Source: Bryobacterales bacterium (GTDB lineage: Bacteria; Acidobacteriota; Terriglobia; Bryobacterales; JACQDG01). From it: 64,000 nucleotides of DNA. The stretch is from contig DASREK010000015.1 in NCBI GenBank assembly GCA_035652135.1, positions 14,846-78,845 of the forward strand, in the 5' to 3' direction. Each line of letters starts with the position of its first letter. The first letter of the stretch is position 1. A program made the position numbers and the translations under genes. This document shows positions 37,113 through 63,441 of this stretch, in pieces. A model generated the notes under the pieces. The model was given only the letters and a program-made list of their open reading frames with translations, searched no databases and was not told where the DNA came from.

Positions 37113-37164
37113 ACCCCGTCTCCAGCGTGCTGCTGCTGGCTCGAACTACTCGGGAGGGATTTAG

Positions 37165-43503: not shown

Positions 43504-43648
43504 TGCTTCCTCCTATGCGAGGAGGCCGGCGCCTCATAGGGGCTCCTGTTTCGGGGGGCGCGAGTGGATCGGCCCAGGACCGAACTTGTTTGCGCCGAAA
43601 GTTTTCTCCGGAGCTTTCACTTGAGAGGAAAGCGTTTCTTTCCATCTT

Positions 43649-44803
43649 TCAGCTCAGATTTTGCAGCCGCGGTTCATCTTCCAGATGCAGATTCACCGGA
43701 CCCGGCGCGCCTGTTTTGCCGGTGAGAGCGGCTCCTTCAGGGCCGCTCGATGGATTCATACAGAGCTCGCTGAGAGCCGGTGAAGGGGCAAGCGTTTCCG
43801 TATACAGAGCAGGGGCTGATATGCCGTTCCCCTTCTCCTGCGCCATGCGAGCCGCGAGTTCCGCCATGGTGAGGGTTTCAATGTCACCCGACTCCCGCGC
43901 CTTTAATATCCGCTCGAGAATGCCTTCAAAGACGGAAAACCCCTTCGGCGATTCGGCCAGATTCACCGGATGCAGACAGAAATGAAACACTCCATTATGG
44001 CGGATAGCGGCATCCAGCCCCCGCGCTACGCGCTCAATTCGGCTGCGGAGAACAACCAGACGGCTGCGCGACTCGCCGATTGGATAAAGAAACAGCGATG
44101 CCGGGATATTCCACAGGCCCGGCAGCGTCTCTTTGGGCCATACGGGTGGAGGCGTCGCCCGGCCTAATTCCTCCAGTATCCGCAGCAAGGAGCCGGGAAG
44201 CGTTCTGCCCAGCTTTTCGGAAAGCACGGGCGGGCGACCGCGGTAACAAAGAATGCCGTTAGACGCCAGAAGACCGTGGCAAGCTTCCTGATTCCGCGGG
44301 AAAGAGAACGAGACGGGCCGCACCCGGACTGCCTCCAAAGCCTCGATGCCACCGAAAAATTCCCGGCGGATTACTTCCGGCTTCGACCGCCAATCGGTCC
44401 AAATCAAATGCGTCAAGCCGCCGTGCAACCCGACGTCCTGTTTGGGGCGAGCCTCTGCCAAACGCTTGACAAAGGAACGCCGATACCAGAGCGCGGCGAT
44501 TCCTTCATCCCCCGGCGGAATGGAGCGAGTCCAGCGGGCGGGCAGGCCTAAGAGCCTGGGATCTCGCGGGCCGTCGCTTTCGGCAAGCGCCATACCGCCC
44601 ACCACCAGCCACGTCGCGCTCACGCCAGCCGAGCAAAGGACGCCCAAAAGGCGATCGTAAGCGGCCAGAGCGCTCGGATACCGTTCGCAGAACTGCTGCT
44701 CATTCAGAAGATCGAGATGTCCCCATATCTGCTCTGCATCGAGCGAAATGATCGCGACAGCGCGTTTCAGGCTTCTGTGAAAATTCTCATCGGGAGCTGG
44801 CAC
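43649..44803 (-). CDS. Polysaccharide deacetylase-family (CE4-like) protein
   Basis: AIISLDAEQIWGHLD...ATWLVVGGMAL...GLHGGLTH...FSFPRNQ has the layout of the divergent EPS-locus deacetylase subfamily. The NodB motifs are not canonical. Confidence 0.6.
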   Translation of the reverse strand: MPAPDENFHRSLKRAVAIISLDAEQIWGHLDLLNEQQFCERYPSALAAYDRLLGVLCSAGVSATWLVVGGMALAESDGPRDPRLLGLPARWTRSIPPGDEGIAALWYRRSFVKRLAEARPKQDVGLHGGLTHLIWTDWRSKPEVIRREFFGGIEALEAVRVRPVSFSFPRNQEACHGLLASNGILCYRGRPPVLSEKLGRTLPGSLLRILEELGRATPPPVWPKETLPGLWNIPASLFLYPIGESRSRLVVLRSRIERVARGLDAAIRHNGVFHFCLHPVNLAESPKGFSVFEGILERILKARESGDIETLTMAELAARMAQEKGNGISAPALYTETLAPSPALSELCMNPSSGPEGAALTGKTGAPGPVNLHLEDEPRLQNLS

Positions 44804-44821
44804 GATTTCACCCCATTTCTG

Positions 44822-46402
44822 TTACCGAGAAATAGAAACGGCCGGCCCGCGCGGCCCAAACCGGCCGTCCACATCGAGAAAAGGACGTTTTGCCTCCGTC
44901 CTGGAGCCGGCGAAGGCCGCCATGACCCGGGAGTCGGTTTCATCTGCCTGGGCTGATACTCCAGCGACCTCAAGAAACTTCTGATTGCTGTAATAGAAGT
45001 CGCGATAGTCTGTCACCTCACCCGCTTCCAACGCGCTCTTGAGTTCGCGAATCCCGTCTTCCAGCGACCACTGGGACCGGAATCCAAGCTGGTTTTGTAT
45101 CTTCGTGAACGACACGCGATAGTTTCTATGATCCGCGTTATCGATGTTTTCTACGCAAATGCCCGGAAACTCATGACGAATTTTTTCCGCGACTTGCGAC
45201 AACGTAAAATTCAAACGCGGATCGCCGACGTTAAAGATTTGACCGCTGACGACTCCGAGCGGGGCGGTCATTACATGTTCAACAGCCGGCGCCACGTCCC
45301 GCACATGAAGAAATGGCCGCCACTGCTGGCCGTTGTAGATGGTGATCACTTTTTCCTGGTAAGCCTTGGCTGTCAGCAGATTTACTACCAGATCAAATCG
45401 GGGCCGATAGGAGTGCCCGAAGACGGTCGACAGGCGCAGAATTACAGGATGAAAGGACTCGCTGTGCGCTTCCAACAGCGCTTCTTCCGAATTGACCTTC
45501 GTCCGCGCATACAGCGACACCGGATTCACAGTCGCCCGCTCATCCACCAGCTCTTCACTGATTCCATACACACTGCAACTGGAAGCGAAAATGAATCGCC
45601 CGATACAATAGCCTTTGGCCACCTCAATTAACATCCTGGTGGCGGCATAGTTGACCTCGAGAGCCGTCTGGCGGTCTTGTTCGCAAGCGGGATCACCGAC
45701 GATGGCCGCCAGGTGAACAATGGCATGAACTCCCTTTACAGCTCCGACGACTGTTTGAATATTGCGGCAATCGCCAACGACCAGCTGGAGATTGGGATGG
45801 TTCAAAATATCCCGGATCGACGCATACCCATAGACGAGGCTATCCAGCAACCGCACGTTGTAGCCCCGATCGAGCAGCCGCCGGGTGAGTATTGATCCGA
45901 TGTATCCCGCTCCTCCGACGATTAGAACACTGGCCGGATCGGCAAGCCGACGCGGCGCAGTTTTCTCCACGGCACGCCGCGTCCGGCGGAAGGCGTCTTG
46001 GGCCGCACGAGCTAAAGTCACGGCAATAATGACCAGAGCCGCAAACCAGGCGGCCAGACTCTCAGAAACCAGACCTTCCTGAAAGACCAAGTAATTCGCC
46101 AAAAGATAAAACAACACAGCCAGGCCGGCGCCCTTGACAATAGCTGTCCGCCGATACCGAATAAAATAGAATCCTGGCTTCTGATAAAAGCCGCTGGCCA
46201 TAAAGACCGCAGGAAAGATAAGGGAAAGCGGCCAGAAGCAATGCCAATAATATTGCGGAAATTCGGTTGCGATGTTGTGCGCGGTTTGTTGGTCGCCCAG
46301 AATCACGTGAAATGTAACGGCAAACGCAAGAGCCATCGCCATGCACACGTGAACGAGGATAAAATCCAGCAGACAGGCCAAGCTAATCTTCCCTAGCGAC
46401 AT
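44822..46402 (-). CDS. Membrane-anchored extended-SDR NAD-dependent sugar epimerase/dehydratase/reductase
   Basis: An N-terminal region of about 150 aa has about 4 TM helices. It is followed by the Rossmann motif VLIVGGAGYIGS and the catalytic SSCSVYG...YARTK. Confidence 0.8.
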   Translation of the reverse strand: MSLGKISLACLLDFILVHVCMAMALAFAVTFHVILGDQQTAHNIATEFPQYYWHCFWPLSLIFPAVFMASGFYQKPGFYFIRYRRTAIVKGAGLAVLFYLLANYLVFQEGLVSESLAAWFAALVIIAVTLARAAQDAFRRTRRAVEKTAPRRLADPASVLIVGGAGYIGSILTRRLLDRGYNVRLLDSLVYGYASIRDILNHPNLQLVVGDCRNIQTVVGAVKGVHAIVHLAAIVGDPACEQDRQTALEVNYAATRMLIEVAKGYCIGRFIFASSCSVYGISEELVDERATVNPVSLYARTKVNSEEALLEAHSESFHPVILRLSTVFGHSYRPRFDLVVNLLTAKAYQEKVITIYNGQQWRPFLHVRDVAPAVEHVMTAPLGVVSGQIFNVGDPRLNFTLSQVAEKIRHEFPGICVENIDNADHRNYRVSFTKIQNQLGFRSQWSLEDGIRELKSALEAGEVTDYRDFYYSNQKFLEVAGVSAQADETDSRVMAAFAGSRTEAKRPFLDVDGRFGPRGPAVSISR

Positions 46403-46438
46403 TCTCGGTTCTCCGGGTATAGCGTTGCGGGCTGATTG

Positions 46439-47632
46439 TCAGGAGGCAGCGGCATACCCGCCGCGCGGCGGAAGGCCGCGGAGGGAGCGCCCATTCGAAA
46501 TTGCTCTCCGGACGGCTACGATTACGTCCGCCACATCGCTGTCGGACATTTTTGGATAGAGCGGAAGAGAAAGCAGTTCATTGTAGATTTTCTCGGCTAT
46601 AGGAAAGGACGCCTCCGAGCAGTGCAGCGCTCTACGGTAGTAGGGGTGCCGGTGCAGGGGGGTGAAATGCACGCTCGTTCCGATGTTCGCTTGTCTGAGC
46701 TTTTCGATCAACAAATCGCGGCCGCCAGCCATGGAATCCACGCGTAATGGATATAGATGATATGTATGCCTTCGGCCGGGCGCTTCCGCGGGCAAGCGAA
46801 TTCCCGGGACGTCGGCCAGGCCGGCCGCGTAACTTTCTGCAATCTCCCGGCGGCGCTCGATGAAACCATCCAGCCGTTGCAACTGATGAATTCCCAAAGC
46901 GGCCTGGATATCGGTCATGTTGTACTTGTAACCCGCTTCGTGAACCTCGTAATACCACGACCCAGGCTGCGTATAGCGTTTCCACGCATCGCGGCTCATT
47001 CCATGCAGGGAGAGCAGGCGGATTCTGCCAGCCAGCCAGTCGTCGTTTGTGGTGAGCATGCCGCCTTCGCCGGTGGTCATGTTTTTCGTCGCATAAAAGC
47101 TGAAAGCGACTGCCTGGCCGTGGGCGCCTATCTTCTTCCCGCCGTACTCGGCCCCGACCGCATGGGCGGCATCCTCCAGGATCAGAACGTCGTGTTTTTT
47201 TCCCAAATCGAGCAGAGCGTCGAGATCGCAGGCCTGGCCGGCGTAGTGAACAGGTATGATGGCGCGGGTGCGGCCGCTCAGGCTGCGGCGAATAGCGTCC
47301 AGGCTTATGTGAAAATTGTCGTCCACGTCCGCCAGAACCGGCGTCGCCCCGAGATGGGCGACGACGTTCGCCGTCGCGCAGAACGTGAGTGTAGGCACGA
47401 TGACTTCATCGCCCGGGCCGATGCCAAAGGCGGCCAGCGCGACGTGCAGCGCAGCCGTGCAGGAGCTGAGCGCGATGGCGTGCTTTACCCCGACGTATTG
47501 GGCGAAATCCTGTTCAAACTTCTTCACCTTGGGTCCGGTGGTGACCCAGCCGCGCTGCAAGCTGTCCACAACTTCCTGAATTTCCTCGGGCCCGATAAAA
47601 GGCTGGCAATACGGCAGAAATGCGCTGCGCAT
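46439..47632 (-). CDS. DegT/DnrJ/EryC1/StrS-family sugar aminotransferase (PLP)
   Basis: PFIGPEEIQEVVDSLQRGWVTTGPKVKKFEQDFA...SCTAALHVAL...SFYATKNMTTGEGGML, with the PLP lysine. Confidence 0.9.
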   Translation of the reverse strand: MRSAFLPYCQPFIGPEEIQEVVDSLQRGWVTTGPKVKKFEQDFAQYVGVKHAIALSSCTAALHVALAAFGIGPGDEVIVPTLTFCATANVVAHLGATPVLADVDDNFHISLDAIRRSLSGRTRAIIPVHYAGQACDLDALLDLGKKHDVLILEDAAHAVGAEYGGKKIGAHGQAVAFSFYATKNMTTGEGGMLTTNDDWLAGRIRLLSLHGMSRDAWKRYTQPGSWYYEVHEAGYKYNMTDIQAALGIHQLQRLDGFIERRREIAESYAAGLADVPGIRLPAEAPGRRHTYHLYPLRVDSMAGGRDLLIEKLRQANIGTSVHFTPLHRHPYYRRALHCSEASFPIAEKIYNELLSLPLYPKMSDSDVADVIVAVRRAISNGRSLRGLPPRGGYAAAS

Positions 47633-47677
47633 AAAACGTGATCCGGTTAACCGGTTTGTGAAAAAAAGCGAGCCTGG

Positions 47678-48664
47678 CTAAACGAGCTTTCGGAAAGTAA
47701 GACTGGCGCCGCACAGGCGGAAGCCGCACTTTTCATACAAGCGTCCGGCTGCCAGGTTTCGCAATTGAGTCCCGACCTCGACAATGCGAACCCCTTTCTC
47801 GCGAAACCATCGGAGCGCTCCCAGGGTCGCCAGGCTTGCCACTCCCTGGCCGCGCGCGTTTTCCGCGGTCGCTACCATCACGATCGTCCCAAACGACACG
47901 CCGATCGTGGAAGCGGCTTCCTGGTCGATCTTGCAGGTGACGTAGCCCAGGACGCTCTCGCCCTGGGAGGCAATGATTACAGCATCGGCTGCGCTGCCCA
48001 GGCACGAGTTTCGCAGCCAGGCCTCGTTAATGTGATCGGCGGCGGCCGAGCTCAGAGCGTAGTCGGCATGGAACCGGTCATAAATATAGGCCGTCCTGGC
48101 GATTTTCAGCACCTGGTCGAGATCGGATTCGCGGAAAAGACGCACGCAAACGCCGCTGGGGGTTGCGGCGGGCGGAGCTTCCAGATCCAGTCCATCCAGT
48201 GAAATCGCGAACGTCTGGATGCCGTCGATCAACTCGAAGCCCGACGCCTCCAGGGCATGAATGGCCGAAAAGTCTCCGGTATCCACGCGAGCCGTTAAGT
48301 GCCGCACGCCCTCCCGCTGGCACTGTTTGTAAACATCGCCGATCAAGCGGCGCTTGACGTGTCGGCTGTCCCAGTAATCGCCCTCCGCGACTAGGAACTC
48401 GAGACGGGCGCTTGGGAACCCGAACAACTCGCTGTCCCAGAGCAGCTTGCTCCAGCAAGCCGCGCCGCATAGGGACTGGCCGCTCCATTGCAACAGCAGA
48501 GAAGCTTGTTCGCTCGACAGTAAGCGCTCCACCCTTTTTTGAGAGAGCCGTTGAAAGGCTTCCGCTGGTGCCAGATCTTGGTAGACACGGCGGCGAGCCA
48601 GGTTTTCCACAATGAAGCGCACCGCTACCTCTGATTCCGGAAGAACCGCGAGGGAGTTACTCAT
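47678..48664 (-). CDS. GNAT N-acetyltransferase with an N-terminal extra domain (WecD-like sugar N-acetyltransferase, tentative)
   Basis: C-terminal GNAT core VMVATAENARGQGVASLATLGALRWFREKGVRIVEVGTQLRNLAAGRLYEKCGF. The start ATG 48664 overlaps the upstream stop (ATGAGTAA). Confidence 0.75.
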   Translation of the reverse strand: MSNSLAVLPESEVAVRFIVENLARRRVYQDLAPAEAFQRLSQKRVERLLSSEQASLLLQWSGQSLCGAACWSKLLWDSELFGFPSARLEFLVAEGDYWDSRHVKRRLIGDVYKQCQREGVRHLTARVDTGDFSAIHALEASGFELIDGIQTFAISLDGLDLEAPPAATPSGVCVRLFRESDLDQVLKIARTAYIYDRFHADYALSSAAADHINEAWLRNSCLGSAADAVIIASQGESVLGYVTCKIDQEAASTIGVSFGTIVMVATAENARGQGVASLATLGALRWFREKGVRIVEVGTQLRNLAAGRLYEKCGFRLCGASLTFRKLV

Positions 48665-50459
48665 GGGAGTGCACCGGCTGATTTTCAGCAAGCGATTCGG
48701 GCTGTGCCGAGACGTAGATGCCGCGCCGGCTGACCACGTACGGCGCCGTCTTCAGCAGAAGCTTAACGTCGAGCAGCATCGAGCGCTTCTCGACGTACTC
48801 CACATCCAGTTGTTTGCGCTGTTGCCACGGGATGGAATTGCGGCCGTTGAGCTGAGCGAGACCCGTAATGCCAGGCTTGACGTCCAGGCGCCGCTTCTCG
48901 GCGGGAGTATAAAAGCTGAACTGATCCGGGAGTTCCGGCCTCGGACCGACCAGGCTCAGATCACCCGCGAGCACGTTGATCAACTGGGGCAACTCATCCA
49001 GGCTTGCCTTGCGCAGAAATCGCCCCACCGCGGTCAGCCGCGGATCCCGGTCGCCGTTGAAAGTGGAGCCGTCCGCGTTGCGTAGATCGGCGCACCCGGC
49101 GCGCATGGTGCGAAATTTATAAATGGTGAAGGGAACGCCGTAGCGTCCCAACCGGCGCTGCCGGAAGAGCGCTGGCCCCGGAGACGTCAGCCGGATCGCC
49201 GCCGCAATCAAGAACATCAGGGGACTCAGCAGCAGCAGCAGCAAGCCCGAAATCGCGACATCCAAAACGCGCTTCGCCGCCGGATACAACTTTGCTTTAT
49301 GCAACGCGGGGTTTTTGGTTCGCGTTTCCAGTTCTCTGACGGCTGCGCAGTACTCGTCTGCATATTTTTCGAGCATGGTTTGCTCCGTATACGACGCAAG
49401 ATAGACACTGCGAGCGGTGCGGCCCAAGCGTTCGGCCAAGCTCGGGTCAGCGATCAGCTTCTGCATGGCCTCTGCCAGCGCACCGTCGTCGCCCGGCGGT
49501 ACAAGCAGCGCCGCAGAGCCGTTTCGGGTCGCCTCACAGTTGCTGGAGATGGCCGTAGCCACGATCGGTTTGCCGGCAGCCATGGCTTCCAATAGTGCTA
49601 TCGAAAGGCCTTCCCGCACGCTCGGAAGGACCACCAGGTCGCTCGCCGCCAGCAGATCTCCGACATCGTTCCGGAATCCGAGAAACCGCACTCGCGGCGC
49701 AATGCCCAGTTCTACTGCCAGCGCGGCGATACCCTCCCGGATCGGGCCGCTGCCGGCCAGGCACACGCTCAGAGGCAGGCCGCGGCTGATTAACACCGAG
49801 GCGGCTCGCAGCAGATCCTCAATTCCTTTCAGCGGCGCCAGGCGCCCTGTCGAAAGTACAACTACCTCCTTAGCTCCCGCCTCCAAGCTCGCTCTTACCG
49901 CATCCCTGCCGGCAGCGGCTTCGACTCTCGATTGGGGAATTCCATTAGGTATAGCCCTGATCTGATGACCGCCGGCAATGCGCAATCGCAGGCCCCACCG
50001 GCGGTGAAACTCGCTGACAGTGAAGATCCGTCGGCACCAGCGGGAGGCCGCGCGCTCCAAAACGGAACAGGCTGCAATGACGAGCCGCGACGAGCGCTCG
50101 TGAAAGGCGAAACCGTGGGCGGTGTGAAAGATGATAGGAACTCCGGCGAGCCGCGCCGCCAGTCGTCCGACAAAGCCGCCCTTGGAGGTGTGCGTGTGCA
50201 CAATGGTGTAGCGCGCCGTTTTGAGAAAGCGATATAGGCGAAGCAAGCCCACAACGTCGCGGACAGGACGGATGCTGCGCCAGATTACATCGAGCGCCAC
50301 AACCCCGATTCCCGCCTCGCGCAGCGCGGCCTGAAACGTGGCATCGGTGGTCAAGACATCGACATCCCAGCCCATGCTTTTTGCGTGACGGGCCAGTTGG
50401 AGGATAATGATGGAACCGCCGCCAAACTTCGATTCGCCCACAATGTGAAGGACTTTCAT
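48657..50459 (-). CDS. Fusion protein: N-terminal GT4-type glycosyltransferase plus C-terminal small phosphoglycosyl transferase (bacterial sugar transferase, initiating enzyme)
   Basis: Residues 1-~370 are GT-B/GT4-like (MKVLHIVGESKFGGG...VLPSVREGLSIALLEAMAAGKPIV). Residues ~390-600 carry a re-entrant helix (VLDVAISGLLLLLLSPLMFLIAAAI) and then FRQRRLG..G.PFTIYKFRTM...DELPQLINVLAGDLSLVGPRP. Confidence 0.88.
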   Translation of the reverse strand: MKVLHIVGESKFGGGSIIILQLARHAKSMGWDVDVLTTDATFQAALREAGIGVVALDVIWRSIRPVRDVVGLLRLYRFLKTARYTIVHTHTSKGGFVGRLAARLAGVPIIFHTAHGFAFHERSSRLVIAACSVLERAASRWCRRIFTVSEFHRRWGLRLRIAGGHQIRAIPNGIPQSRVEAAAGRDAVRASLEAGAKEVVVLSTGRLAPLKGIEDLLRAASVLISRGLPLSVCLAGSGPIREGIAALAVELGIAPRVRFLGFRNDVGDLLAASDLVVLPSVREGLSIALLEAMAAGKPIVATAISSNCEATRNGSAALLVPPGDDGALAEAMQKLIADPSLAERLGRTARSVYLASYTEQTMLEKYADEYCAAVRELETRTKNPALHKAKLYPAAKRVLDVAISGLLLLLLSPLMFLIAAAIRLTSPGPALFRQRRLGRYGVPFTIYKFRTMRAGCADLRNADGSTFNGDRDPRLTAVGRFLRKASLDELPQLINVLAGDLSLVGPRPELPDQFSFYTPAEKRRLDVKPGITGLAQLNGRNSIPWQQRKQLDVEYVEKRSMLLDVKLLLKTAPYVVSRRGIYVSAQPESLAENQPVHSHE

Positions 50460-50492
50460 ATTCCGGATCCCGAACAGCCGCCGGCTGCGGGG

Positions 50493-51854
50493 CTATTCCA
50501 CAACATGGTCGAGTAAATACTCCAATTGGGGTTCTTGAGAGCTGGCGGCCTCTCTTACATTTTTCTGATCCCCGCCGGCTCTGTCCGGCTTGCGGCTTAA
50601 CGGATCCAGGCGCATCCAACGCAGGATTGCGTAGGTGGCCGCGGCGGCGGCCAACTGGGAGAGCGTGGCCGCCCAAGCCATGCCCACATCCATGTGCCGC
50701 GGGGCCAGCAGCACTGCCAGGCCGATGTTCAGAACTCCGGCGCCCAACACTATCAAGTTGAAGGGACGGTCCAGGTCGAGAGGCAGCATCCAGTGAACTC
50801 CCAGAACATTGCGAAGCGCAACTATGGGAGGAAGAATGGCAAAAACTCGCAGGACGACCGTGGCCGGCTCAAAACCCTTGCCGAGCAGTATCCGCACAAG
50901 CTGCGGCGCGAAGGCGAACATGAACAGACCCATCAGCAGGCCGATCGACACCAGCACGAGAGCGGCCAGCCGCGCGAACCTTTGCGTTTCCGGCCGAGAG
51001 CGCTTAGCCAGATTGCTGATGCGCGGGTAGGCGGCGTCGCTGACCGGCCCCAGCAGCCCCAGTATTGCCCGGCAGATTCTGTCAGCGCCGGCGTAGTAGC
51101 CGACCACGTGGGGAGGCGCGAACAAACCCAGGATAAATGCGTTGCCCACTGTGTACATGATCGAGGCATTCCGCGGAACGAAAGTGGTGATGCTGCCTCG
51201 CAATGCCCCCATCAGCAGGCTGATTCGCGGCAGCCGGAAACGAAGATCGCGGTAGACAAGGCCAAGCGACCCGGCCAGCGAAAGCAGCGACGCTCCGCCT
51301 TGAATGCCAAGCACCTTCCAGCCGTCGGCCGGAGCTCGTACCAGAAAGAAAATCGCCGCGACCGCCGAGCTCTTGGCCAGGAGATCGATGGTCACCGCCG
51401 CTTTCATGCGCTCGATGCCCTGGTAAAACCACATCATGTTGAGACCCTGGACCAGCGACCAAAACAGCCCGGCCCAGAACAAGGCGGAATGCTGGCGCAG
51501 CGGCAAAACGAAATGCCTGACTCCAAGGGCCATGACCAGGCATAACGCGACGAGCAGCAGCTTCGCCCCCATCACTCCGGCCACCAACTCGGAGAGCTTG
51601 TCCTTCGCTTCCTGGTGGCGGGCCACCTCGCGCGTCGCCGAAAACGTAAAGCCAAACTCCACGATCAGCAGGAGATATCCGCCGAAGGCTTGAACGAAGG
51701 CGACTTCCCCCCAACTCGACGGCCCCAGTACTCGACTCAGGTAGGGAACCGTAACGAGAGCGAGCAGATAACCCGAGCAATAGAGCCCGTAAAGCGCAGC
51801 TACGTTGTGCGCCAAACCGGAGGGAACACGAACGCTGAGAAAGCGCTTTACCAT
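50493..51854 (-). CDS. Wzx-type oligosaccharide flippase (MOP superfamily)
   Basis: About 453 aa from ATG 51854 (MVKRFLSVRVPSG...) with 12-14 TM segments in a MOP-like arrangement. Its start overlaps the upstream stop by 7 nt. Confidence 0.8.
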   Translation of the reverse strand: MVKRFLSVRVPSGLAHNVAALYGLYCSGYLLALVTVPYLSRVLGPSSWGEVAFVQAFGGYLLLIVEFGFTFSATREVARHQEAKDKLSELVAGVMGAKLLLVALCLVMALGVRHFVLPLRQHSALFWAGLFWSLVQGLNMMWFYQGIERMKAAVTIDLLAKSSAVAAIFFLVRAPADGWKVLGIQGGASLLSLAGSLGLVYRDLRFRLPRISLLMGALRGSITTFVPRNASIMYTVGNAFILGLFAPPHVVGYYAGADRICRAILGLLGPVSDAAYPRISNLAKRSRPETQRFARLAALVLVSIGLLMGLFMFAFAPQLVRILLGKGFEPATVVLRVFAILPPIVALRNVLGVHWMLPLDLDRPFNLIVLGAGVLNIGLAVLLAPRHMDVGMAWAATLSQLAAAAATYAILRWMRLDPLSRKPDRAGGDQKNVREAASSQEPQLEYLLDHVVE

Positions 51855-53113
51855 GCTCTCCCCGCACGTGCGGCTGTCCTCTTCGCAATCGCGCTGGATG
51901 CGCCGATCATCGCCATGATCAGCCACCAGTGCCTTTGATAAAGCGCCTCGATTCCGGCTGACAATCCGAGCATGCCGGCGTGCGCTCCCAACAAGCCCAC
52001 AATCAGCGGCCGCTCGTCCGGGCCCATCGATCGGTATGCGGCGGCTCCTCTAGTGAAAAACCACAACATTAGTCCTAAAAATATGCCGGCCCCGGCGAGT
52101 CCGAATTCGGTCATCATCCAAGCCGTGGTGTTATGAATGATGTACGGCCTTCGTAGAACAGTCGGGTCTCCCTTAGTGAACTGGTCAAATTGGCCCAACC
52201 CGATTCCGAACAGAGGACTTTGCGAAAAGAAGGGGAGAGCGTCCTGAATCTGCTGGAGGCGCTGGTGTGCTGTATTGGGACGGCGCGCCAGAAACACGGC
52301 CCGCGACTGGCCGAGCAAAAGCATCACAGCAAATGCGGCTGCGGCCCCCATGGCAGCATAAGCGGGCAACAGCGAAGGCCGGAACGCTGCGATCACCAGC
52401 AGCGCCGCGGCCAGGCCAATCCAAGCGGAACGCGAAAACGTCAGCATGAGCGCCGTGGCCAGCATCACGCTGGCTAAGGCTGCGGGAGTCCTGCCCAACA
52501 ACGGGCGCGGCGAAAACAGCGTCACGGTATTGGGGACCAGCGCTGCAACAAGCAAGCCTCCAAAGGCGTTTGGATCGATCAACATGCCCGAAACACGAGC
52601 GGCGCCGTAGTTGATCCTGGGCACGGATACCCCCGAGAAGTACACAACGACTCCCAGCAGCGCGTGCAGGGCCGCCGCGACTATGAAGATCCGAAGCAGC
52701 GAGCGTATGGCGGACCAACTTCCGCAGTTGCTCGTAATGCATAGATAGCTGCCCATCAGTGAGAGCAGGCCCAGGTCCTTAATGAGGATGTAAGAAGTCA
52801 ACTTGGCAAGCTGATTCAGCGCGACAAAAGTGGATATGAAAAATATGATCACCAGCGCCGCGTGAAAAACACTCCACGCCCCGCGGACAATGCGGATCCT
52901 CCCCAGCTCGATCGCAAAACAGAGGGCTAGAAACAGATCCGACGGAGCGAGATTCATGGTGTTGGATTCGAATTGCACAGGAAGCAAAAAAACATATGCT
53001 CCGAGAAAAAGGGGCAACAATCCTCTTCCATGCCCCGTTGCGGGGCCAGGGGAAGGGACTACATGCCATCGGGGCTCGCCCCGAAGCAGCGGCGATTGCA
53101 CTTCGGGCGTCAT
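51848..53113 (-). CDS. O-antigen ligase/Wzy-like polymerase family membrane protein
   Basis: 421 aa, polytopic, with the central motif LMLTFSRSAWIGLAAALLV typical of the Wzy_C/O-antigen ligase family. Confidence 0.75.
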   Translation of the reverse strand: MTPEVQSPLLRGEPRWHVVPSPGPATGHGRGLLPLFLGAYVFLLPVQFESNTMNLAPSDLFLALCFAIELGRIRIVRGAWSVFHAALVIIFFISTFVALNQLAKLTSYILIKDLGLLSLMGSYLCITSNCGSWSAIRSLLRIFIVAAALHALLGVVVYFSGVSVPRINYGAARVSGMLIDPNAFGGLLVAALVPNTVTLFSPRPLLGRTPAALASVMLATALMLTFSRSAWIGLAAALLVIAAFRPSLLPAYAAMGAAAAFAVMLLLGQSRAVFLARRPNTAHQRLQQIQDALPFFSQSPLFGIGLGQFDQFTKGDPTVLRRPYIIHNTTAWMMTEFGLAGAGIFLGLMLWFFTRGAAAYRSMGPDERPLIVGLLGAHAGMLGLSAGIEALYQRHWWLIMAMIGASSAIAKRTAARAGRAW

Positions 53114-53119
53114 GGCCGG

Positions 53120-55423
53120 CTAGAGTTTTCGCGTAGCGTAGGTTGCATAGCCATAAAAGGAATCGGTTCTCGGATCCCAGCCGTTCAGAATTGTGCCGAG
53201 CACAGTAAGGTTATCCGCCAAGAGCCGCTGGAGAGTGGCGACGGCCGCTTCCCGGCTGGTCTTTTTTGCGCGGAGAACCAAAATCACCCCGTCCGCCGCA
53301 CGGCTCAGCAGGCGGGCGTCGGGACCATGCAGGGCTGGCGGGGCGTCTATGATCACCATATCGAACTCCTGCCGGAGTTGAGCAACCAGTTCCGGAAGCC
53401 GCTCGCTATGCAGCAGAGCGGAGATGCCAGCGGCTTCTTTCGTCTCCGGGGCGATGGTGAGCGGTCCGCTCGGCAGAAGATAAAGATTTGGAATCCCTCG
53501 AACCATCTCCGCATATCGCACAGCTCGGGTATCGAGCACGCTGGAGTCGCAGAGCAGATCGCTCAGCCCCGGCCGGCCCGCCAAATTGAAAATTTTGTGC
53601 AAGCGAGGACGCCGAATGTCCCCATCGACTAAAAGCACACGGCGGTTCGTTTGGGCCAACGCGATCGCCAGATTGGCGGCCACCGTTGTTTTTCCTTCGC
53701 CCGGGCCGGGACTGGTCAGGGTGATAACGTGCGCCGCGCCCTCGTACCTTATGCACAAAGAGGCGGCCGCATCGTGAAACGATTCAACAAGCAGCGGATA
53801 TGCGCCATCCCGCGCAGCCAGCTCTACTTTTTGTCCGTTCCTATGCGGGTTGGCCGGCAAGCAAGCCCGTAAACCGGCGAGGCAGCCGCGCTGCGGCTTC
53901 GGAATCGCGGCTAGTTCAGGCGTCTGCAAGATGGATAAAGCTTGTCCCGGCGATTTGAACGTTACATCGCTGTGCTCGCGCAGTAGAACGACGCCGACCC
54001 CGAAAAACAGCCCGGCAAAGAGCGCCACAGAAAGGTTGAGCAGATAGTTGGGTTTGTAGGGCCGCGCCGGCGGCAGGGCGCGATTGAGCACTCGGATGTT
54101 GCTTGCCGGAACCGCGGCTCCCAGGCTGAGTTCCTGGGCCTTTTGCAGCATGGAAGCATGCAGCGCCCGAGCCGTCTCAACTTCGCGCTTGAGGGTGTTG
54201 TAATGGATCGATTTCGCCGCCAGACTCGAAACCAGCTTCGACTGGTCGGCGTATCGCGTGGAAAGCAACTGCTCGCGCCTCAGGGCTGCCTGGTATTCAT
54301 TTTCGATTCGTTTGCGGGTGGCAGCCAGTTCGCGGTCGCGGGCCGCTTCCAGCACGGCAATCTGGTTTTGGACGGTGCGTACTTTGTAGTGCGACGGGGT
54401 CAAGAGAGACTCGAGCGATTCAAGCTCCCGCCGCAGATCGGTCAGCTTCACCTCGTAATCCCGCAGCGCATTGTCGCCCACCACCTGAGGAAGGGATTCC
54501 GGCGGGACGTCCGCCGCGGCCTGATACTGCGACTGCTTCATGATTCGGTCGGCCTGCGCCGCCGCCAGTTCATTGCCGAGTAACCGCAGCCTGGCTTCTG
54601 CAACGTTGTCCTGCTGCTGCTCTCCTGTGAAAAGCAACCCTGCGTTCTGCGCATAATCCTGGGTTTGCCGCTCGAGACTTTCCAGAGTTGTGCGTATTTC
54701 CGCAACCTGTCCGGAAAGCCATTCTCCGACCCGGCGCGCTGTTTCTGAGCGGGCCTGCTGATGTTCACGGATAAACTCGTCGGCCAATGTGTTAGCGAAT
54801 TGCGCCGCAAACCGCGCGTCCGGAGAATCGTACGTGATATGAATAAGCCGGGCCTGATTCCAAACACCCACACGCATCCGCACCATCTTGAGCGCGCGCT
54901 CGCGAGGCGAAATTGGCGCCACCGGCAGCCCCGCCGCATTCCGGACGCGATCCACCAAGCCGGGTGCCGTGAATTCGGGACGATTTAAGAGATTCAGACG
55001 GTCTGCGACCCGCCCCAGCACGGACTCATTTTGAAGAATTTCCACTTCCGTTTGCATGGCCAGGTCGCCCGCGCCGTCGGGCGGCGCCGCCGGAGCCGCC
55101 GGCTCCCGAAAGGGCGTGACTGCTTCGTTCAGCGGCTGGTACTCCAGCGATGTCTGCGCTTGATACATGGGCGTTTGCCCCGCCGTGTACCCCCAGGCGC
55201 CCAAAACGGCAGCTAAAGCGCATAAAAAGATGAACGGCGCTTTTCGCCGGATCAGCCGCCAATAAGTGATTAATGTGTCCAGCCCGGCGTCACTTGACGC
55301 GGTGGATGGCGCACCGAGCGGCCATACGCTCGCTTCGGGACGCGAGAGGCCGATGCTGTCGTCATGCACGGCAGACGAATTCATGATGCGGGGCTCCAGG
55401 GATCGATCCCAACGGTGTGGCAT
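53120..55423 (-). CDS. Polysaccharide co-polymerase / tyrosine autokinase (Wzc/GumC-like)
   Basis: An N-terminal Wzz-like TM and coiled-coil periplasmic region is followed by a second TM and a P-loop kinase (TSPGPGEGKTTVAANLA, VLLVDGDIRRP). The tail is Tyr-rich (DSFYGYATYATRKL). Confidence 0.88.
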   Translation of the reverse strand: MPHRWDRSLEPRIMNSSAVHDDSIGLSRPEASVWPLGAPSTASSDAGLDTLITYWRLIRRKAPFIFLCALAAVLGAWGYTAGQTPMYQAQTSLEYQPLNEAVTPFREPAAPAAPPDGAGDLAMQTEVEILQNESVLGRVADRLNLLNRPEFTAPGLVDRVRNAAGLPVAPISPRERALKMVRMRVGVWNQARLIHITYDSPDARFAAQFANTLADEFIREHQQARSETARRVGEWLSGQVAEIRTTLESLERQTQDYAQNAGLLFTGEQQQDNVAEARLRLLGNELAAAQADRIMKQSQYQAAADVPPESLPQVVGDNALRDYEVKLTDLRRELESLESLLTPSHYKVRTVQNQIAVLEAARDRELAATRKRIENEYQAALRREQLLSTRYADQSKLVSSLAAKSIHYNTLKREVETARALHASMLQKAQELSLGAAVPASNIRVLNRALPPARPYKPNYLLNLSVALFAGLFFGVGVVLLREHSDVTFKSPGQALSILQTPELAAIPKPQRGCLAGLRACLPANPHRNGQKVELAARDGAYPLLVESFHDAAASLCIRYEGAAHVITLTSPGPGEGKTTVAANLAIALAQTNRRVLLVDGDIRRPRLHKIFNLAGRPGLSDLLCDSSVLDTRAVRYAEMVRGIPNLYLLPSGPLTIAPETKEAAGISALLHSERLPELVAQLRQEFDMVIIDAPPALHGPDARLLSRAADGVILVLRAKKTSREAAVATLQRLLADNLTVLGTILNGWDPRTDSFYGYATYATRKL

Positions 55424-55438
55424 ATGCTTTCGAAGTCG

Positions 55439-56473
55439 TTATCGGGGCAGACCCACGCGCCAGATCGTAATGCCCGTGCCTACATTCAACGCCGCTTCCG
55501 CCGCCCGGAGGGCCACATTTCTGGTCGCGTTATTCGGAACGAATAAGATGTCCTCCGCCTCCATCATGATGTCCCTGGATTTCCCGGCCAATATCTGCTT
55601 GATGTTGACAGCAATCTCCACGCGCTTTTCGTCGGAGGCGCTTGTACGAAGAATCTTGGCCTTCTCTGGGGCCGCGTTCGGTCCGAGTCCCTCCGCCAGA
55701 GAAAGGGCCTGCAATACGGAAATATGCTCGCGCTCGCTCAAGGCGAAGCCGCCCGATTTGTGAACGTCGCCGATCACATACACTGTTTGCGCCTGGGAGA
55801 CCGAGATGACATCGTCCGGTTCGATCAGTATGTTGGCGCTGGGATTGGAACCTTCCATCAGCTCTCGCAGGCTTACCTCGGCCATACTGAAACGCTTGGT
55901 TGGATCTTGCACCGCGGTCCGGAGCGGTATTTGCCCGCGGTCTGACCGCCGGGTGATTCGCACTGTATTGCCCGCGTCATTTCTGACGCCCTCGGCCATG
56001 GAGAGGACCTCGATGAGCGTCTTCCGCCCGCGAAGCTGCTGAATCCCCGGCTTGTTGACCGCGCCAATCACCGACACGGGCTGGCTGTGAAAATCAGTGA
56101 CCGACACCGTGACCTGGGGCTCCTTCACAAATACGCGCAGGCGGCTTATTATCTCCGCCTTAATCTGCTCGGGTGTCCGGCCAAGCGCCAGAATTCTGCC
56201 TATCAGCGGTACATCCAAATACCCCTCGGAATCCACGCGGATGGGTTTGGCGGAAATTTCTTCCGAGCCGAGCGCCCAAACGCTAAGTTCGTCGCCTGGC
56301 CCGAGCATATAAGCTTCTGCGTTGCCGGGGTCGATCGGACTCGCCAGCCCGCCCGCGGCGGCCTGATGTTGGGGCCGGCCGGAAGGCGCCGCCAGCAGCA
56401 TCATAGCCAGCATCAATGCGATGGAGCCTTCAGCCTTCAGAGGCCACAGGTCCCGGAATAGCTTCGACGGCAT
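55439..56473 (-). CDS. Polysaccharide export protein (Wza-like, Poly_export plus SLBB domains)
   Basis: YMLGPGDELSVWALG... is the Poly_export signature, and SLBB-like repeats follow. The start is set to ATG 56473 (MPSKLFRDLWPL...). Confidence 0.85.
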   Translation of the reverse strand: MPSKLFRDLWPLKAEGSIALMLAMMLLAAPSGRPQHQAAAGGLASPIDPGNAEAYMLGPGDELSVWALGSEEISAKPIRVDSEGYLDVPLIGRILALGRTPEQIKAEIISRLRVFVKEPQVTVSVTDFHSQPVSVIGAVNKPGIQQLRGRKTLIEVLSMAEGVRNDAGNTVRITRRSDRGQIPLRTAVQDPTKRFSMAEVSLRELMEGSNPSANILIEPDDVISVSQAQTVYVIGDVHKSGGFALSEREHISVLQALSLAEGLGPNAAPEKAKILRTSASDEKRVEIAVNIKQILAGKSRDIMMEAEDILFVPNNATRNVALRAAEAALNVGTGITIWRVGLPR

Positions 56474-56477
56474 AAAA

Positions 56478-57083
56478 CTAACTCCACGAGATTTCCCGCT
56501 GCCGTAAAACCAGATCCTCGTTGATCTCAACCAGCACCGAACGTTGCAGCAGAGTAATGGACAAAAGCAGCCGGAAGGGCCTCGTAGAATCCACCACGAC
56601 GCCCTCCACCCCGGCCAGCGGGCCGCTGGCGATCCGCACGCGCTCGCCCGCAGTTAGAAAGGCGTGGGGCTGCATTGGAAAACTGGCGCGCGCCGCCGAT
56701 TGCAGCGCTTTTATCTCGTTGTCGTCCACTGGGGTCGGCACGCGCCCCGCACCGACCAGCCGGATGACGCCCGGAGTCATCAGAATAGGCAGCCGCACCA
56801 GCGCGTCGAACCGGCAAAATACATATCCGGAAAACAATGCAAGCTCAAACTGGCGGAGGCGCCTGCCATACCGGTGTTGACGCCGGTAAAGCGGCACAAA
56901 CGTTTCGTAGCCTTTGTACCGCAACAGACGCGATACCGCTTTCTCATGGCGTGGCCTGACGGCCAGCGCAAACCACTCCAGTGCCTCCGAATCATCGCGT
57001 AGCCCGGCGCTTGGGGTTTCAGGTTCGGGCCGCCATCTATTCATCAGTGGAGTAAGAGGGCGTTGGGAGTTTCCTGGAAACAT
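56478..57083 (-). CDS. NusG-paralog transcription antiterminator (RfaH/UpxY-like); first gene of the polysaccharide operon
   Basis: NGN domain WFALAVRPRHEKAVSRLLRYKGYETFVPLY...FSGYVFCRF, and KOW motif GERVRIASGPLAGVEGVVVD. The start is ambiguous (ATG 57083 or 57044). The ORF-track start 57197 lies upstream of the predicted sigma-54 promoter. Confidence 0.8.
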   Translation of the reverse strand: MFPGNSQRPLTPLMNRWRPEPETPSAGLRDDSEALEWFALAVRPRHEKAVSRLLRYKGYETFVPLYRRQHRYGRRLRQFELALFSGYVFCRFDALVRLPILMTPGVIRLVGAGRVPTPVDDNEIKALQSAARASFPMQPHAFLTAGERVRIASGPLAGVEGVVVDSTRPFRLLLSITLLQRSVLVEINEDLVLRQREISWS

Positions 57084-57145
57084 AGCTACCGCAATCTCAG
57101 TTATCAGGAACTGAGTCCACGCTGCTCCCTGACGTTCAAGTCCAA

Positions 57146-57161
57146 TGCAACGCCAATGCCA
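57146..57161 (-). promoter_or_regulatory. Sigma-54 (-24/-12) promoter candidate for the polysaccharide operon
   Basis: The minus strand reads TGGCAT-TGGCG-TTGCA. GG and GC have the exact consensus spacing, and TGGCA and TTGCA are intact. The predicted TSS is near 57135, which is 52 nt upstream of ATG 57083 and 91 nt upstream of ATG 57044. Confidence 0.62.
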
Positions 57162-57400
57162 GTCGGCCTCACCGCGTGGGTTGCCCAGGCAAATCAAGCG
57201 CTCTCCGTATCGTTACAGAGTCCGGAGAGGCGCGATGACAGCTTTCGTGGCTCCCGGCAAAGTGGAAGGCCGGGTGACAACTGTGGCATCGCGGTTCTCT
57301 ACGGCGGCCAAGTGGAGGGCTGCGCTGTATAGTCGTACAATTTTGCATCTTTCGTTTCGATGCGTTTCTGGCAATTCCAGCGAAGAATCTCAATCACTTT

Positions 57401-57439
57401 TTTTGAAAAGAAGATATGTTCGTCTATCTTTTTTCAAAA
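57401..57439. promoter_or_regulatory. AT-rich imperfect palindrome (possible activator/IHF-type site) about 240-280 nt upstream of the -24 element
   Basis: TTTTGAAAAGAAGATA (57401-57416), an 8-nt spacer, then TATCTTTTTTCAAAA (57425-57439). The arms are complementary except for one extra G. It is the most AT-rich patch I saw in the window. Confidence 0.3.
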
Positions 57440-58499
57440 CCCAGGCAAGCGCCTGAGGTGCGATTTCTTTGATATCGAGGCGGCGGCATTGCCACGCCAC
57501 AGCGTTCAATCAGGTTTGACCAGCCTGCCAGCCGCACGAAATTCCTTTGGTAACAAACGGTGCGGCGCATTCAGATGCGGGCCGCGGACGTATGTACGTT
57601 TACGGTTGCGTAACCCCAAAAATGCAAAATCGACGAGCGAATGTCGGCAGCGTATGTTAGCCCTCTACTTTTTTGGCGGCCGAACTCTTTATACTGCGGT
57701 AGTGTTGTTTCCAGGGTAGTTGTTTCGAGCAGCGCTGCCGTTTCAATTTTAAGGCGCGCTGGGAGTGCCGAACCAAGCGTCAGGCCATTGCGTAGCGGAG
57801 TGGCCAGAGCCGGACAATCCGGTAGCACGCTGATTCCACTTTCGAGTGGAATCGCGGCGCAGATAGATCTTCTTATGAAGGACACTATGGCGCTAGCAGG
57901 GACAGAAGGTGAAGCTTCAAGCGTGGCGCAAACCCACTTCTCCGCGGATAGGCAACGGAACTGTGTGCGGCGCCCGCGCTTCCCGCGCCCGGTCGCGCCT
58001 TCGGCGTATCTCCAGGAATCGGGAGTCGTGCCGCTGGTCATCGAAACTCCTGCAAAGTGGCATCCATACCCTCTACGCACAAAGAAAGCGCTCCCGGAGG
58101 AGTGGGGAGATTCACTTCGCACGCAAGGGACTCAGAAGCCCGTTATCAACATCGAGCCAGCCGCTGGCGGGCGGGAAAGATTTCGCTTTTTAGCGCCCAG
58201 GCTCCCGTCAAATACTGCCAGTCCTGAGGGAGTCAGCGAGGCAATGCGGATTGAACCAGGTTCTTCTCCCGATCACGTCAATAGAAACGCGAGAAACGTG
58301 TGGGGCGCGGGAGACGGAACTAGTCCTGAGTTGCGACCCGGAAGCGCTCGCCCCAGTGGCCCCTGCGCGGGAATCCCGCAGTCGATTCGAACAATGCATA
58401 GTCGAGACATCACGAAGAAAACTGCGTTCGGCAAAGGCTTCGTGACGCTTGTAAGTTTGCCCTTTCTCCAGTTGACCAGCGTGGAGGCTATGGTACCCA

Positions 58500-59882
58500 A
58501 TGAACAGACGCCGAGTTCTCGTAGTAGATGACGACAAGAGCATCCTTGCCTATCTCTCCGATCTTTTGGCCGATCGCTACGACGTAGACTGCCTGGATTC
58601 GGGCGAAGGCGTCGTGCCCTATTTGGGCTCCGGCGCCCGCCCGTCTTTGATCCTGCTGGATTTGATGATGCCGGCGGTCAGCGGTCTGGATGTGCTGGCC
58701 GCAATCGAACGCCTGAGCCGCCGGCCGCCCGTGATTGTTCTGTCGGCGATCGGCCAAATCAACACCGTAGTGAGAGCGATGAAGCTTGGCGCATCGGATT
58801 ATCTGGTCAAGCCGGTGGAAGAACAGGACCTCTATCAGGCGATCGAAAACGCATTAGAAGAGTCCGATGACCCAGAAGAAACGGCGGCGCCGGCCGCTGC
58901 CTGCGGGGCCGACATCATTTCTGCCAACCGCCAGGTGCTCCGTGTCAAGCAAATCGCCGCGCAGGTAGCGGACGCAGAGGTTCCTGTTCTCTTGCTCGGA
59001 GAGTCCGGGGTGGGCAAAGACGTATTTGCCCGCTATATCCATGCCCGATCGAGCCGCAGCGCCGCGCCGTTCGTCAAGGTCAATTGTGCGGCGCTCCCGG
59101 CGGACTTGCTGGAATCGGAGCTGTTCGGGTATGATCGCGGGGCCTTTACAGGAGCTCTTCGGGAAAAGCCGGGGAAGTTTGAACTTGCTGGCCGGGGAAC
59201 GCTTTTTCTGGACGAAATCGGTGAAATGAGCCCCGTGCTCCAGGCTAAACTCCTGCACGTTCTTCAGGACGGAGAATACAGCCGCCTCGGAAGCACACGG
59301 AGCACGCTTTCTCAAGCACGCATTATCGCTTCGACCAACAAGCGCATCGAAGAGGCGGTATCGAAGGGCGAGTTCCGCGAGGATTTGTACTTCCGTCTGA
59401 ATGTAATTCGTCTGCAAATTCCTCCCCTTCGCGAGAGGCGCGAGGATATTCTGCCGTTGTCGCATTTCTTCTTGGAAAAATACCGCCCTCAATACCCGCG
59501 GTCGCCTCGGCAGTTGCCTCGCGAGCTGATCCAGGCCATTCTGCTGCATTCCTGGCCCGGCAATGTGCGGCAGCTTGAAAACACGATTAAACGTTTCCTC
59601 GTGCTGCCTGACCTCGATTTTGCGCTGGCCGAACTGCGGGAATCTGGCACTCCGTTTAATGTCAGCTCGCCGCCGCAAAATCGTTCCCTGAAGCGTGTAT
59701 CCGCTCTGGCGGCAGAAAGAGCAGAAAAAGAGGTGGTCCTTCGCACGCTCGATGAGACGAACTGGAACAGAAAGCAGGCAGCCCGCGAGCTCAATATTTG
59801 CTATAAAGCCCTGCTGAACAAACTTCGAAAATGGGATATACCGGGACGGTCCAAAGGCCCCATCGAGCCTTCCGCGCTCTAA
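58500..59882 (+). CDS. Sigma-54-dependent response regulator (REC plus AAA+ enhancer-binding domain plus Fis-type HTH; NtrC family)
   Basis: The receiver has VLVVDDD...LILLDLMMP...VLSA...YLVKP. The AAA+ domain has GESGVGKDV, ESELFGYDRGAFTGA (GAFTGA) and RVIASTN-like (RIIASTN). The C-terminal HTH reads NRKQAARELNICYKALLNKLRKW. Confidence 0.92.
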   Translation: MNRRRVLVVDDDKSILAYLSDLLADRYDVDCLDSGEGVVPYLGSGARPSLILLDLMMPAVSGLDVLAAIERLSRRPPVIVLSAIGQINTVVRAMKLGASDYLVKPVEEQDLYQAIENALEESDDPEETAAPAAACGADIISANRQVLRVKQIAAQVADAEVPVLLLGESGVGKDVFARYIHARSSRSAAPFVKVNCAALPADLLESELFGYDRGAFTGALREKPGKFELAGRGTLFLDEIGEMSPVLQAKLLHVLQDGEYSRLGSTRSTLSQARIIASTNKRIEEAVSKGEFREDLYFRLNVIRLQIPPLRERREDILPLSHFFLEKYRPQYPRSPRQLPRELIQAILLHSWPGNVRQLENTIKRFLVLPDLDFALAELRESGTPFNVSSPPQNRSLKRVSALAAERAEKEVVLRTLDETNWNRKQAARELNICYKALLNKLRKWDIPGRSKGPIEPSAL

Positions 59883-63161: not shown

Positions 63162-63171
63162 GCTGTCCCTC

Positions 63172-63441
63172 CTACGCCGCCGGTTGGAGCTTGGTTTGAA
63201 TGAATCTGCTGAGGTTGTTGATCGAATCCAGATTGTCCGGCACCAGATCTTCATCTTCAATTTTGATCTGATATTGCCGCTCCAACAAACTCACCAGTTC
63301 CAGAACGCTCGTGGAGTCGATAATGCCTTTTTCCAAAAAAGAGTCGTCGTCCGAAAATTTGCCGTCGTCTTGGCCGAAAAGAAGATTTTCCACCACCAAA
63401 GAGCGCAATTCCTGATTGAGTGTTTGATTAAGTGTTTCCAT
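63172..63441 (-). CDS. Acyl carrier protein (stand-alone)
   Basis: 89 aa from ATG 63441 (METLNQTLNQELRSLVVENLLF...). It has the phosphopantetheine site LEKGIIDSTSVLELV and an acidic helix II. Confidence 0.85.
   Translation of the reverse strand: METLNQTLNQELRSLVVENLLFGQDDGKFSDDDSFLEKGIIDSTSVLELVSLLERQYQIKIEDEDLVPDNLDSINNLSRFIQTKLQPAA

Follow-up and report, generated by a model that had tools for sequence, protein, structure and literature searches.

Control of exopolysaccharide (EPS) and envelope genes by sigma-54 is documented across phyla (PMC3162934), and further cases in which sigma-54 acts with an enhancer-binding protein (EBP) are Burkholderia BerB/Bep (PMC9684580) and the PEP-CTERM-associated PrsK/PrsR system (PMC1569441). 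Specialized NusG paralogs are a second point of comparison: in the Bacteroides UpxY/opsX system, the first gene encodes a NusG paralog that joins RNA polymerase during a pause in the operon leader, with the aid of a nascent-RNA hairpin (PMC11685472), and the role of ops/JUMPStart in RfaH recruitment has also been described (PMC7593976; PMC2871177). Here we analyzed a 64-kb stretch of Bryobacterales DNA (the window; 64,000 nt), in which the 16-nt element TGGCATTGGCGTTGCA lies upstream of a 15.3-kb EPS operon headed by a gene for a NusG paralog. Judged by its sequence and that of its relatives, there is a strong probability that TGGCATTGGCGTTGCA is a sigma-54 promoter, with a transcription start near 57135 on the minus strand, and that it drives this operon. 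The host phylum, the Acidobacteriota, comprises soil bacteria that are hard to grow and study.

Like the sigma-54/EBP envelope systems, the window has a probable −24/−12-type promoter ahead of an operon for the biosynthesis and export of polysaccharide, and the gene for an NtrC-family AAA+ activator adjoins it. Unlike the systems described in PMC3162934, PMC9684580, and PMC1569441, the window has a NusG paralog as its first gene and an ops-like leader; neither feature was seen to be mentioned in those papers, and neither NusG nor "antiterminat" occurs in the text of PMC3162934. The promoter alone is ordinary, because sigma-54 control of polysaccharide genes is already known. For the combination of a sigma-54 promoter, an ops-like hairpin leader, and a cis-encoded non-RfaH NusG paralog, no description was found in the literature searched. 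The search also yielded no paper that links Acidobacteria with NusG paralogs or ops, and the accessible part of the supplementary text of PMC7593976 does not mention Acidobacteria.

The promoter element and the operon downstream of it are located as follows:

57146..57161, minus strand: sigma-54 −24/−12 promoter element TGGCATTGGCGTTGCA (putative), with the GG at 57160/57159 and the GC at 57148/57147, read directly from the sequence.
57133..57137, minus strand: predicted transcription start, ~57135, placed from the −12 GC.
56478..57083, minus strand: NusG-family specialized paralog, the first gene of the operon, starting at ATG 57083 or ATG 57044.
41788..56473, minus strand: downstream operon, ten genes after the NusG paralog, from Pfam/NCBIfam scans and the layout of open reading frames (ORFs).

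In TGGCATTGGCGTTGCA, exactly 10 nt separate the GG from the GC, which is the spacing of a −24/−12 promoter. Against the consensus TGGCACG-N4-TTGCW, 10 of the 12 specified positions agree; TGGCA-N6-TTGCA is present exactly, the test against the flanking consensus TGGCAC-N5-TTGCW was positive, and the element is the sole exact match to TGGCA-N6-TTGCW within the window. It is non-coding and on the same strand as the NusG paralog gene, and its predicted start is within ~100 nt of both candidate start codons. In sigma-54 promoters, the distance from the −12 C to +1 is usually 11–13 nt; with C57147 taken as the −12 C, the predicted start is therefore at ~57135, which is 52 nt from ATG 57083 and 91 nt from ATG 57044. 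A previous sequence-only reading of this DNA had given the minus-strand sequence, coordinates, and GG/GC spacing of the element correctly, as a direct read of 57161..57146 confirmed, and the distances of 52 and 91 nt that it quoted hold when counted from the predicted start rather than from the element. Its operon of ~15 kb corresponds to 11 co-directional genes that extend over 15.3 kb, down to 41788, and the sigma-54 activator that it placed 1.3 kb away is encoded by a gene that begins at 58500.

The promoter region was compared with 80 genome loci (L001–L080) and 80 metagenome loci (L088–L167), all of which encode relatives of the NusG paralog, and with a small number of closer loci. At the related locus L081, the NusG paralog is 84% identical, and the activator, non-coding stretch, paralog, and Wza follow one another as in the window. 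All 18 nt of ACTGGCATTGGCGTTGCA (57163–57146) are identical at L081, compared with 45% and 65% identity in the neighboring 20-nt windows, and TGGCATTGGCGTTGCA is found exactly in L082–L088 at the same relative position.

For the distant relatives, which have 45%–58% protein identity, the ops-like element of the leader (described below) was used as an anchor. A prior-free Gibbs sampler, applied to the 148 nt 5′ of the anchor in 61 acidobacterial loci, returned TGGCA-N6-nTGC as the best motif. The strict form TGGYA-N6-NTGCW is present in the sense orientation in 27 of the 61 loci, 47–88 nt 5′ of the anchor, versus 0 antisense and 0.47 expected. A family matrix was built with 24 columns from 39 sites in relatives, with the window left out. 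Among independent metagenome loci, 13 of 35 have a site with a matrix score of at least 9 bits, 44–69 nt 5′ of the anchor, versus two antisense; at 10 bits or more, the counts are 13 sense and 0 antisense. The promoter-to-anchor distance is 69 nt in the window, and the family range is 44–88 nt. By these counts, a −24/−12-type promoter recurs at this place in ~40%–60% of the family loci, and the window site is among the better examples. Some of the motif-bearing loci also have an IHF-type site, WATCAR-N4-TTR, 39–71 nt 5′ of the −24 box (8 of 50, versus 0 of 37 other loci; exact sites in L007, L043, L057, L066, L073, L074, L119, and L139). Together, the conserved 18-nt block and the de novo motif support the reading of TGGCATTGGCGTTGCA as a sigma-54 promoter.

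A block that is conserved between two species might instead be an operator at which another DNA-binding protein represses or activates a nearby promoter, and might only resemble a −24/−12 element. The footprint of two species cannot by itself separate a sigma-factor site from a regulator site, and the intergenic region has further conserved blocks of unassigned role, at 57268–57257 and 57717–57578. The element is not palindromic, however, and across the distant relatives only the T-G-G-C-A and T-G-C positions are kept while the spacer is variable; conservation centered on GG and GC with a free spacer is the signature of sigma-54 recognition rather than of a dimeric regulator. An operator at this position is quite unlikely.

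A candidate activator of the promoter is encoded divergently from the operon:

58500..59882, plus strand: divergent NtrC-type enhancer-binding response regulator with REC, AAA+ sigma-54 interaction, and HTH_8 domains; candidate activator.
57257..57299, no strand assigned: candidate activator-binding region, −122 to −164 from the predicted start; tentative.

The regulator matches the Pfam Sigma54_activat model (PF00158) with 218.8 bits, and its GAFTGA motif is intact (codons from 59139). Its synteny is repeated in L081, L087, and L088. Identification of the regulator as PrsR was rejected, with a score of 312.2 bits against the TIGR02915 equivalog cut-off of 502.6. In the upstream DNA, the region 57257–57299 is 75%–85% identical to L081, amid DNA that is 25%–65% identical. 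It holds CTTCCACTTTGC (57268–57257), a 12-nt block that is perfect in L081, and it includes one copy of a direct repeat with 50-bp spacing (D1) as well as the inverted repeat I7. A further inverted repeat, I1, was rejected as an activator site because it is not kept in L081. In a 2011 survey that included three Acidobacteria genomes, each of the three had RpoN (PMC3372290).

Several observations weigh against TGGCATTGGCGTTGCA as a sigma-54 promoter, and the first is the quality of the match. With two mismatches allowed, the consensus TGGCACG-N4-TTGCW has 11 matches in the window, versus 12.5 expected, and the single exact match to TGGCA-N6-TTGCW compares with an expectation of 0.30 and is equaled or exceeded in number in 27 of 100 shuffles. 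The family matrix ranks TGGCATTGGCGTTGCA first of ~128,000 window positions, with 12.8 bits, but 84% of Markov-simulated windows hold an equal or better site. Considered alone, the match does not reach significance on the scale of a 64-kb window. About half of the family loci do not have the −24/−12 motif, so sigma-54 control is not universal in the family. An EBP gene is present in the flanks of only four of the 80 genome loci and in those of the metagenome close relative L088; an adjacent activator is thus seen in this lineage and a few others only, and the pairing of activator and promoter rests on proximity in one lineage. The candidate activator-binding footprint rests on two sequences, the window and L081. 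When the upstream region of the window was searched for 9-mers that recur at five distant loci, among them L004 with its adjacent and possibly orthologous activator gene, nothing convincing resulted. Neither an RpoN-box nor an IHF-like WATCAR-N4-TTR site was found in the window.

As the match alone is within chance, the case for the promoter rests on where it lies, on which strand, and on how well relatives conserve it. The improbable part is that the single best site is found just ahead of the operon and in its orientation; a rough estimate for the best site to fall within the upstream non-coding bases of the operon in this orientation is ~0.3 × 200/128,000. The sequence-only reading had expected a match of this kind well under once per window. 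That rarity was overstated, as the expectation and shuffles above show, although place, strand, and conservation do go beyond chance, and the scan of the whole window with a matrix that it had proposed bore it out in rank and not in significance. All but two of the other window matches with up to two mismatches lie within long ORFs or lack the GG or the GC. One exception is a pair of matches at 30505–30599 on the plus strand, in an apparent gap between ORFs and facing into a minus-strand gene; the other, at 38482–38497 on the minus strand, is a candidate second promoter that is discussed at the end of this report.

If TGGCATTGGCGTTGCA were a chance match, the operon would have to use an unrecognized sigma-70 or ECF promoter elsewhere in the ~500-nt non-coding region. 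Matches at the level of the consensus do occur at chance frequency, as do matrix scores of this size, and the roughly half of homologous loci that have no motif must use another type of promoter; L016 and L019 have TTGACA-like boxes. Coincidence would nevertheless have to account for this very 18-mer being perfect amid diverged flanks in L081, and for a motif at the same distance, in the sense orientation only, in dozens of distant relatives. In addition, no sigma-70-like site was found when the minus strand of the intergenic region was scanned. A chance match is therefore unlikely in our view, and the sigma-54 promoter that the sequence-only reading had proposed is supported by conservation, by the motif in relatives, by the activator gene, and by the absence of a detected sigma-70-like site on the minus strand.

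A 239-amino-acid (aa) ORF extension of the NusG paralog gene, from TTG 57197, encloses the promoter element, and the public record P0001 annotates that start. If the gene truly began there, the 16-mer would be coding sequence, and the frame is indeed open from 57197. This start was rejected because the 84%-identical orthologue P0002 is called from the ATG that corresponds to 57083. In other homologues, the N terminus is short, with 5–35 residues ahead of a conserved WF/WY motif, and cannot be aligned, and an N-terminal alignment places the homologue starts no further 5′ than ATG 57083; the Pfam NusG domain begins at residue 74 of the 239-aa form. Between 57200 and 57164, DNA identity to L081 is 45%–65%, and it rises to 100% in two sharply bounded blocks. 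Such block-like conservation of the extension supports a regulatory rather than a coding pattern, and it is very unlikely that the 16-mer is coding. The argument that the sequence-only reading had made against the extension, from the promoter inside it, thus finds agreement in the homologue starts and in conservation of a regulatory type. P0001 probably swallows both the promoter and the leader and is ~38–51 residues too long. Because ATG 57083 is itself within a conserved element, its conservation is no proof that it is the start: GCGGTAGCTATG, which includes this ATG, is found again in relatives, and P0002 carries a Met near the position equivalent to ATG 57044. The start is ATG 57083 or, alternatively, ATG 57044, and we prefer neither.

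Between the predicted transcription start and the gene, the leader has two further elements, one of which overlaps the first candidate start codon:

57096..57115, minus strand: leader hairpin CTCAGTT-CCTGAT-AACTGAG, present in the minimum-energy fold of the leader and ending 3 nt before the core.
57073..57093, minus strand: ops-like element TGCGGTAGCTATGTTTCCAGG, with the core GCGGTAGC at 57092–57085; it spans ATG 57083 and is a candidate site for pausing and loading.

The hairpin and GCGGTAGC are located at ~+20 to +50 from the predicted start, within 65 nt (57128–57064) that are 100% identical in L081, which exceeds the conservation of the N-terminal coding region. In nearly all relatives, GGCGGTAGC is present between the −12 box and the gene. 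Of the 80 genome loci, 61 have an exact copy of GCGGTAGC no more than 450 nt 5′ of the NGN domain, with a chance expectation of ~0.007 per locus; of 75 metagenome loci, 37 have one no more than 350 nt 5′ of the gene. In both sets, these upstream regions are free of antisense copies of GCGGTAGC. The family consensus of the aligned leader elements is TGGGACTnnnAnGGCGGTAGCTTG, and the window copy, gatTGCGGTAGCTATG, is a variant common to the subgroup of closest relatives. Hairpin stems in the relatives differ in sequence (AGAGTC/GACTCT, GAGTGC/GCACTC, CTCGCG/CGCGAG, and TCTCTC/GAGAGA) and end 0–6 nt before the core. The 38 nt 5′ of the core are predicted to fold more stably than their dinucleotide-shuffled versions (mean z = −0.76, 98 loci, p = 1e-8); the fold of the whole leader is no more stable than shuffles (z = −1.1), and the local hairpin alone is notable. 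A search of 56900–58600 against all Rfam families at E ≤ 10 produced two chance-level matches only and no polysaccharide-leader RNA. The JUMPstart model, which we take to be an Rfam family, gave no match here.

The 12-nt ops consensus of E. coli RfaH, GGCGGTAGnnTG, is compatible with the family consensus GGCGGTAGCTTG, and the window sequence tGCGGTAGCtaTG keeps the 8-nt core GCGGTAGC exactly. As in RfaH targets, a long polysaccharide operon carries the element in its transcribed leader, and relatives have extra copies within their operons. RfaH contacts ops through residues K10, H20, R23, Q24, and R73. The position of K10 is K or R in the paralog, and H20, R23, Q24, and R73 are not conserved (variable, K, or P). 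For this comparison, the RfaH sequence was verified against 2oug_A; K10 and R73 of RfaH are named in PMC7593976. Unlike RfaH, which stands alone and acts in trans on unlinked operons, the paralog is the first cistron of its operon in the window and likewise in L081–L087.

Like UpxY, the specialized NusG paralog of the window heads a polysaccharide operon on which it is proposed to act and in which a predicted leader hairpin is followed by a candidate pause site, and UpxY is also its best NCBIfam model. Unlike UpxY operons, the second gene encodes a Wza-type exporter, and there is no UpxZ-like gene. The promoter also differs, being of the sigma-54 type, and an invertible promoter was not evident among the listed inverted repeats, although no dedicated test for one was made. 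The leader core GGCGGTAGC is that of E. coli ops and is common to many loci, unlike opsX, which is locus-specific. The paralog scores 59.5 bits with the Pfam NusG model and is below the NCBIfam NusG cut-off; its 631 homologues are mainly from Acidobacteriota, and homology assigns the organism to that phylum (Terriglobia/Bryobacterales-like). It was rejected as UpxY (NF033644; 89.3 bits, cut-off 100), as RfaH (TIGR01955; 66 bits, cut-off 144.5, with 22% identity in the profile alignment), and as LoaP (NF033641; 57.5 bits, cut-off 125). Recognition of ops has been proposed as a late step of RfaH evolution within Proteobacteria, and ops-like sequences pause diverse RNA polymerases (PMC7593976), so that convergence on such a signal has to be taken seriously beside descent from a common ancestor.

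At 11 loci (L007, L009, L010, L016, L019, L021, L024, L025, L049, L061, and L071), the ops-like element was seen again on the sense strand, within, between, or after operon genes, 0.6–4 kb 3′ of the paralog start and with the flank GGGA..nnatgGCGGTAGC. At L061, an exact TGGCA-N6-TTGCW (7842–7857) lies 127 nt 5′ of the second ops-like copy, and the pair is possibly a second promoter-plus-leader unit. The window also has a second copy, on the side of the activator:

57695..57715, plus strand: second ops-like copy TGCGGTAGTGTTGTTTCCAGG, 18/21 identical to the operon-leader copy and facing the activator gene.

This copy heads an apparently non-coding stretch of ~800 nt before the activator gene (57735–58500). 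It is held in a 140-nt block, 57717–57578, that is ~88% identical to L081, above the identity of nearby coding DNA. The arrangement suggests that the paralog may also act on the transcript of the activator, and the block could represent a feedback loop or a shared enhancer. Near-palindromes, ACGTATGTACGT and GGTTGCGTAACC, were also observed in the block. A 121-aa ORF before the activator in L081 was rejected as coding sequence, as its counterpart in the window is spread over two frames with a stop and carries a 420-nt insertion (~57985–58409).

We infer the following order of events. A kinase would phosphorylate the divergent NtrC-type response regulator (58500–59882), which would then bind upstream DNA, perhaps in the candidate region 57257–57299, and, with ATP, open the closed complex of sigma-54 holoenzyme on the GG at 57160/59 and the GC at 57148/47. 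The transcript from ~57135 would cross the hairpin at 57115–57096 and then the ops-like GCGGTAGC at 57092–57085, where RNA polymerase probably pauses, at ~+44 to +52. The paused polymerase could be loaded with the operon's own NusG paralog, and the loaded paralog would suppress pausing and termination and allow read-through of 11 genes over 15 kb. The paralog gene lies next to the promoter, so basal transcription could prime the system, as in UpxY-type operons. The design is likely to be sigma-54-gated initiation followed by antitermination through a self-encoded NusG paralog.

We advance more tentatively, and at somewhat less than even confidence, the idea that this is a widespread two-tier EPS switch of Acidobacteriota, in which enhancer-dependent initiation by sigma-54 is joined to the loading, at a hairpin-GGCGGTAGC site, of the NusG paralog that the operon encodes. 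If this were true, recruitment of the ops type would be much older than the proteobacterial RfaH lineage or would be convergent on a universal pause sequence, and the second, divergent ops-like copy would add positive feedback between the antiterminator and its own activator. A locus of this type couples a switch of initiation to a self-encoded elongation factor and recurs in many Acidobacteriota, and it offers a test of how specialized NusG paralogs gain sequence-specific recruitment. The −24/−12 box, hairpin, and GGCGGTAGC together could serve as a simple signature with which to detect regulated EPS operons among acidobacterial genomes. For the annotation of the window, an over-extended gene call is corrected, a transcription start is predicted, and a candidate regulator is named for a 15-kb EPS operon.

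The 11 genes downstream of TGGCATTGGCGTTGCA are identified by their domains and layout as a Wzx/Wzy-type EPS operon of 15.3 kb. After the NusG paralog, they encode a Wza-like exporter, a Wzc-like tyrosine autokinase, a Wzy-like polymerase, a Wzx-like flippase, a fused GT4 and initiating sugar transferase, a GNAT acetyltransferase, a DegT aminotransferase, an epimerase/dehydratase, a hypothetical protein, and a GH123-like protein. At the distal end of the operon, two genes for GH123-like glycoside hydrolases converge with overlapping ends, at 39020–41818 on the plus strand and 41788–43503 on the minus strand. Beyond the activator gene, 60652–63976 on the minus strand holds genes like those of exosortase-A/PEP-CTERM systems, for an acyl-CoA ligase, an amidotransferase C terminus, and an NAD synthase. 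As in the PrsK/PrsR context, these neighbors resemble the exosortase-A-associated acyl-CoA ligase and amidotransferase. Unlike PrsR/PEP-CTERM systems, the activator and export genes of the window are all under the PrsR and XrtA/PEP-CTERM cut-offs; the acyl-CoA ligase scores 518 bits against a cut-off of 592, and every PEP-CTERM-specific model is under its cut-off.

The candidate second promoter lies upstream of a neighboring gene cluster:

38497-38482, minus strand: second candidate sigma-54 promoter TGGTACTTTCGTTGCA, 64 nt 5′ of ATG 38418.

TGGTACTTTCGTTGCA is probably a second genuine sigma-54 promoter. ATG 38418 has an SD-like AAGGGGA, and homologues support it as the start of a hypothetical protein of 417 aa that the ORF list extends to 38643. 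The close relative L168 keeps the GG and the GC, reading TGGCACTTGCGATGCG. Upstream of this element, a region of ~370 nt (38650–39020, minus strand) is ~95% identical to L168 (1335–1700), above the expectation for a spacer, and a 113-aa ORF is called in part of this region in L168. The cluster itself, at 31816–38418 on the minus strand beside the EPS operon, encodes the hypothetical protein, an ATP-grasp protein, an adenylation and carrier-protein enzyme, and a cytochrome P450. In L170–L172, the hypothetical protein is encoded amid luciferase-like, adenylation, carrier-protein, flavin-reductase, ATP-grasp, and carbamoyltransferase genes, and these clusters share contigs with NusG paralogs.

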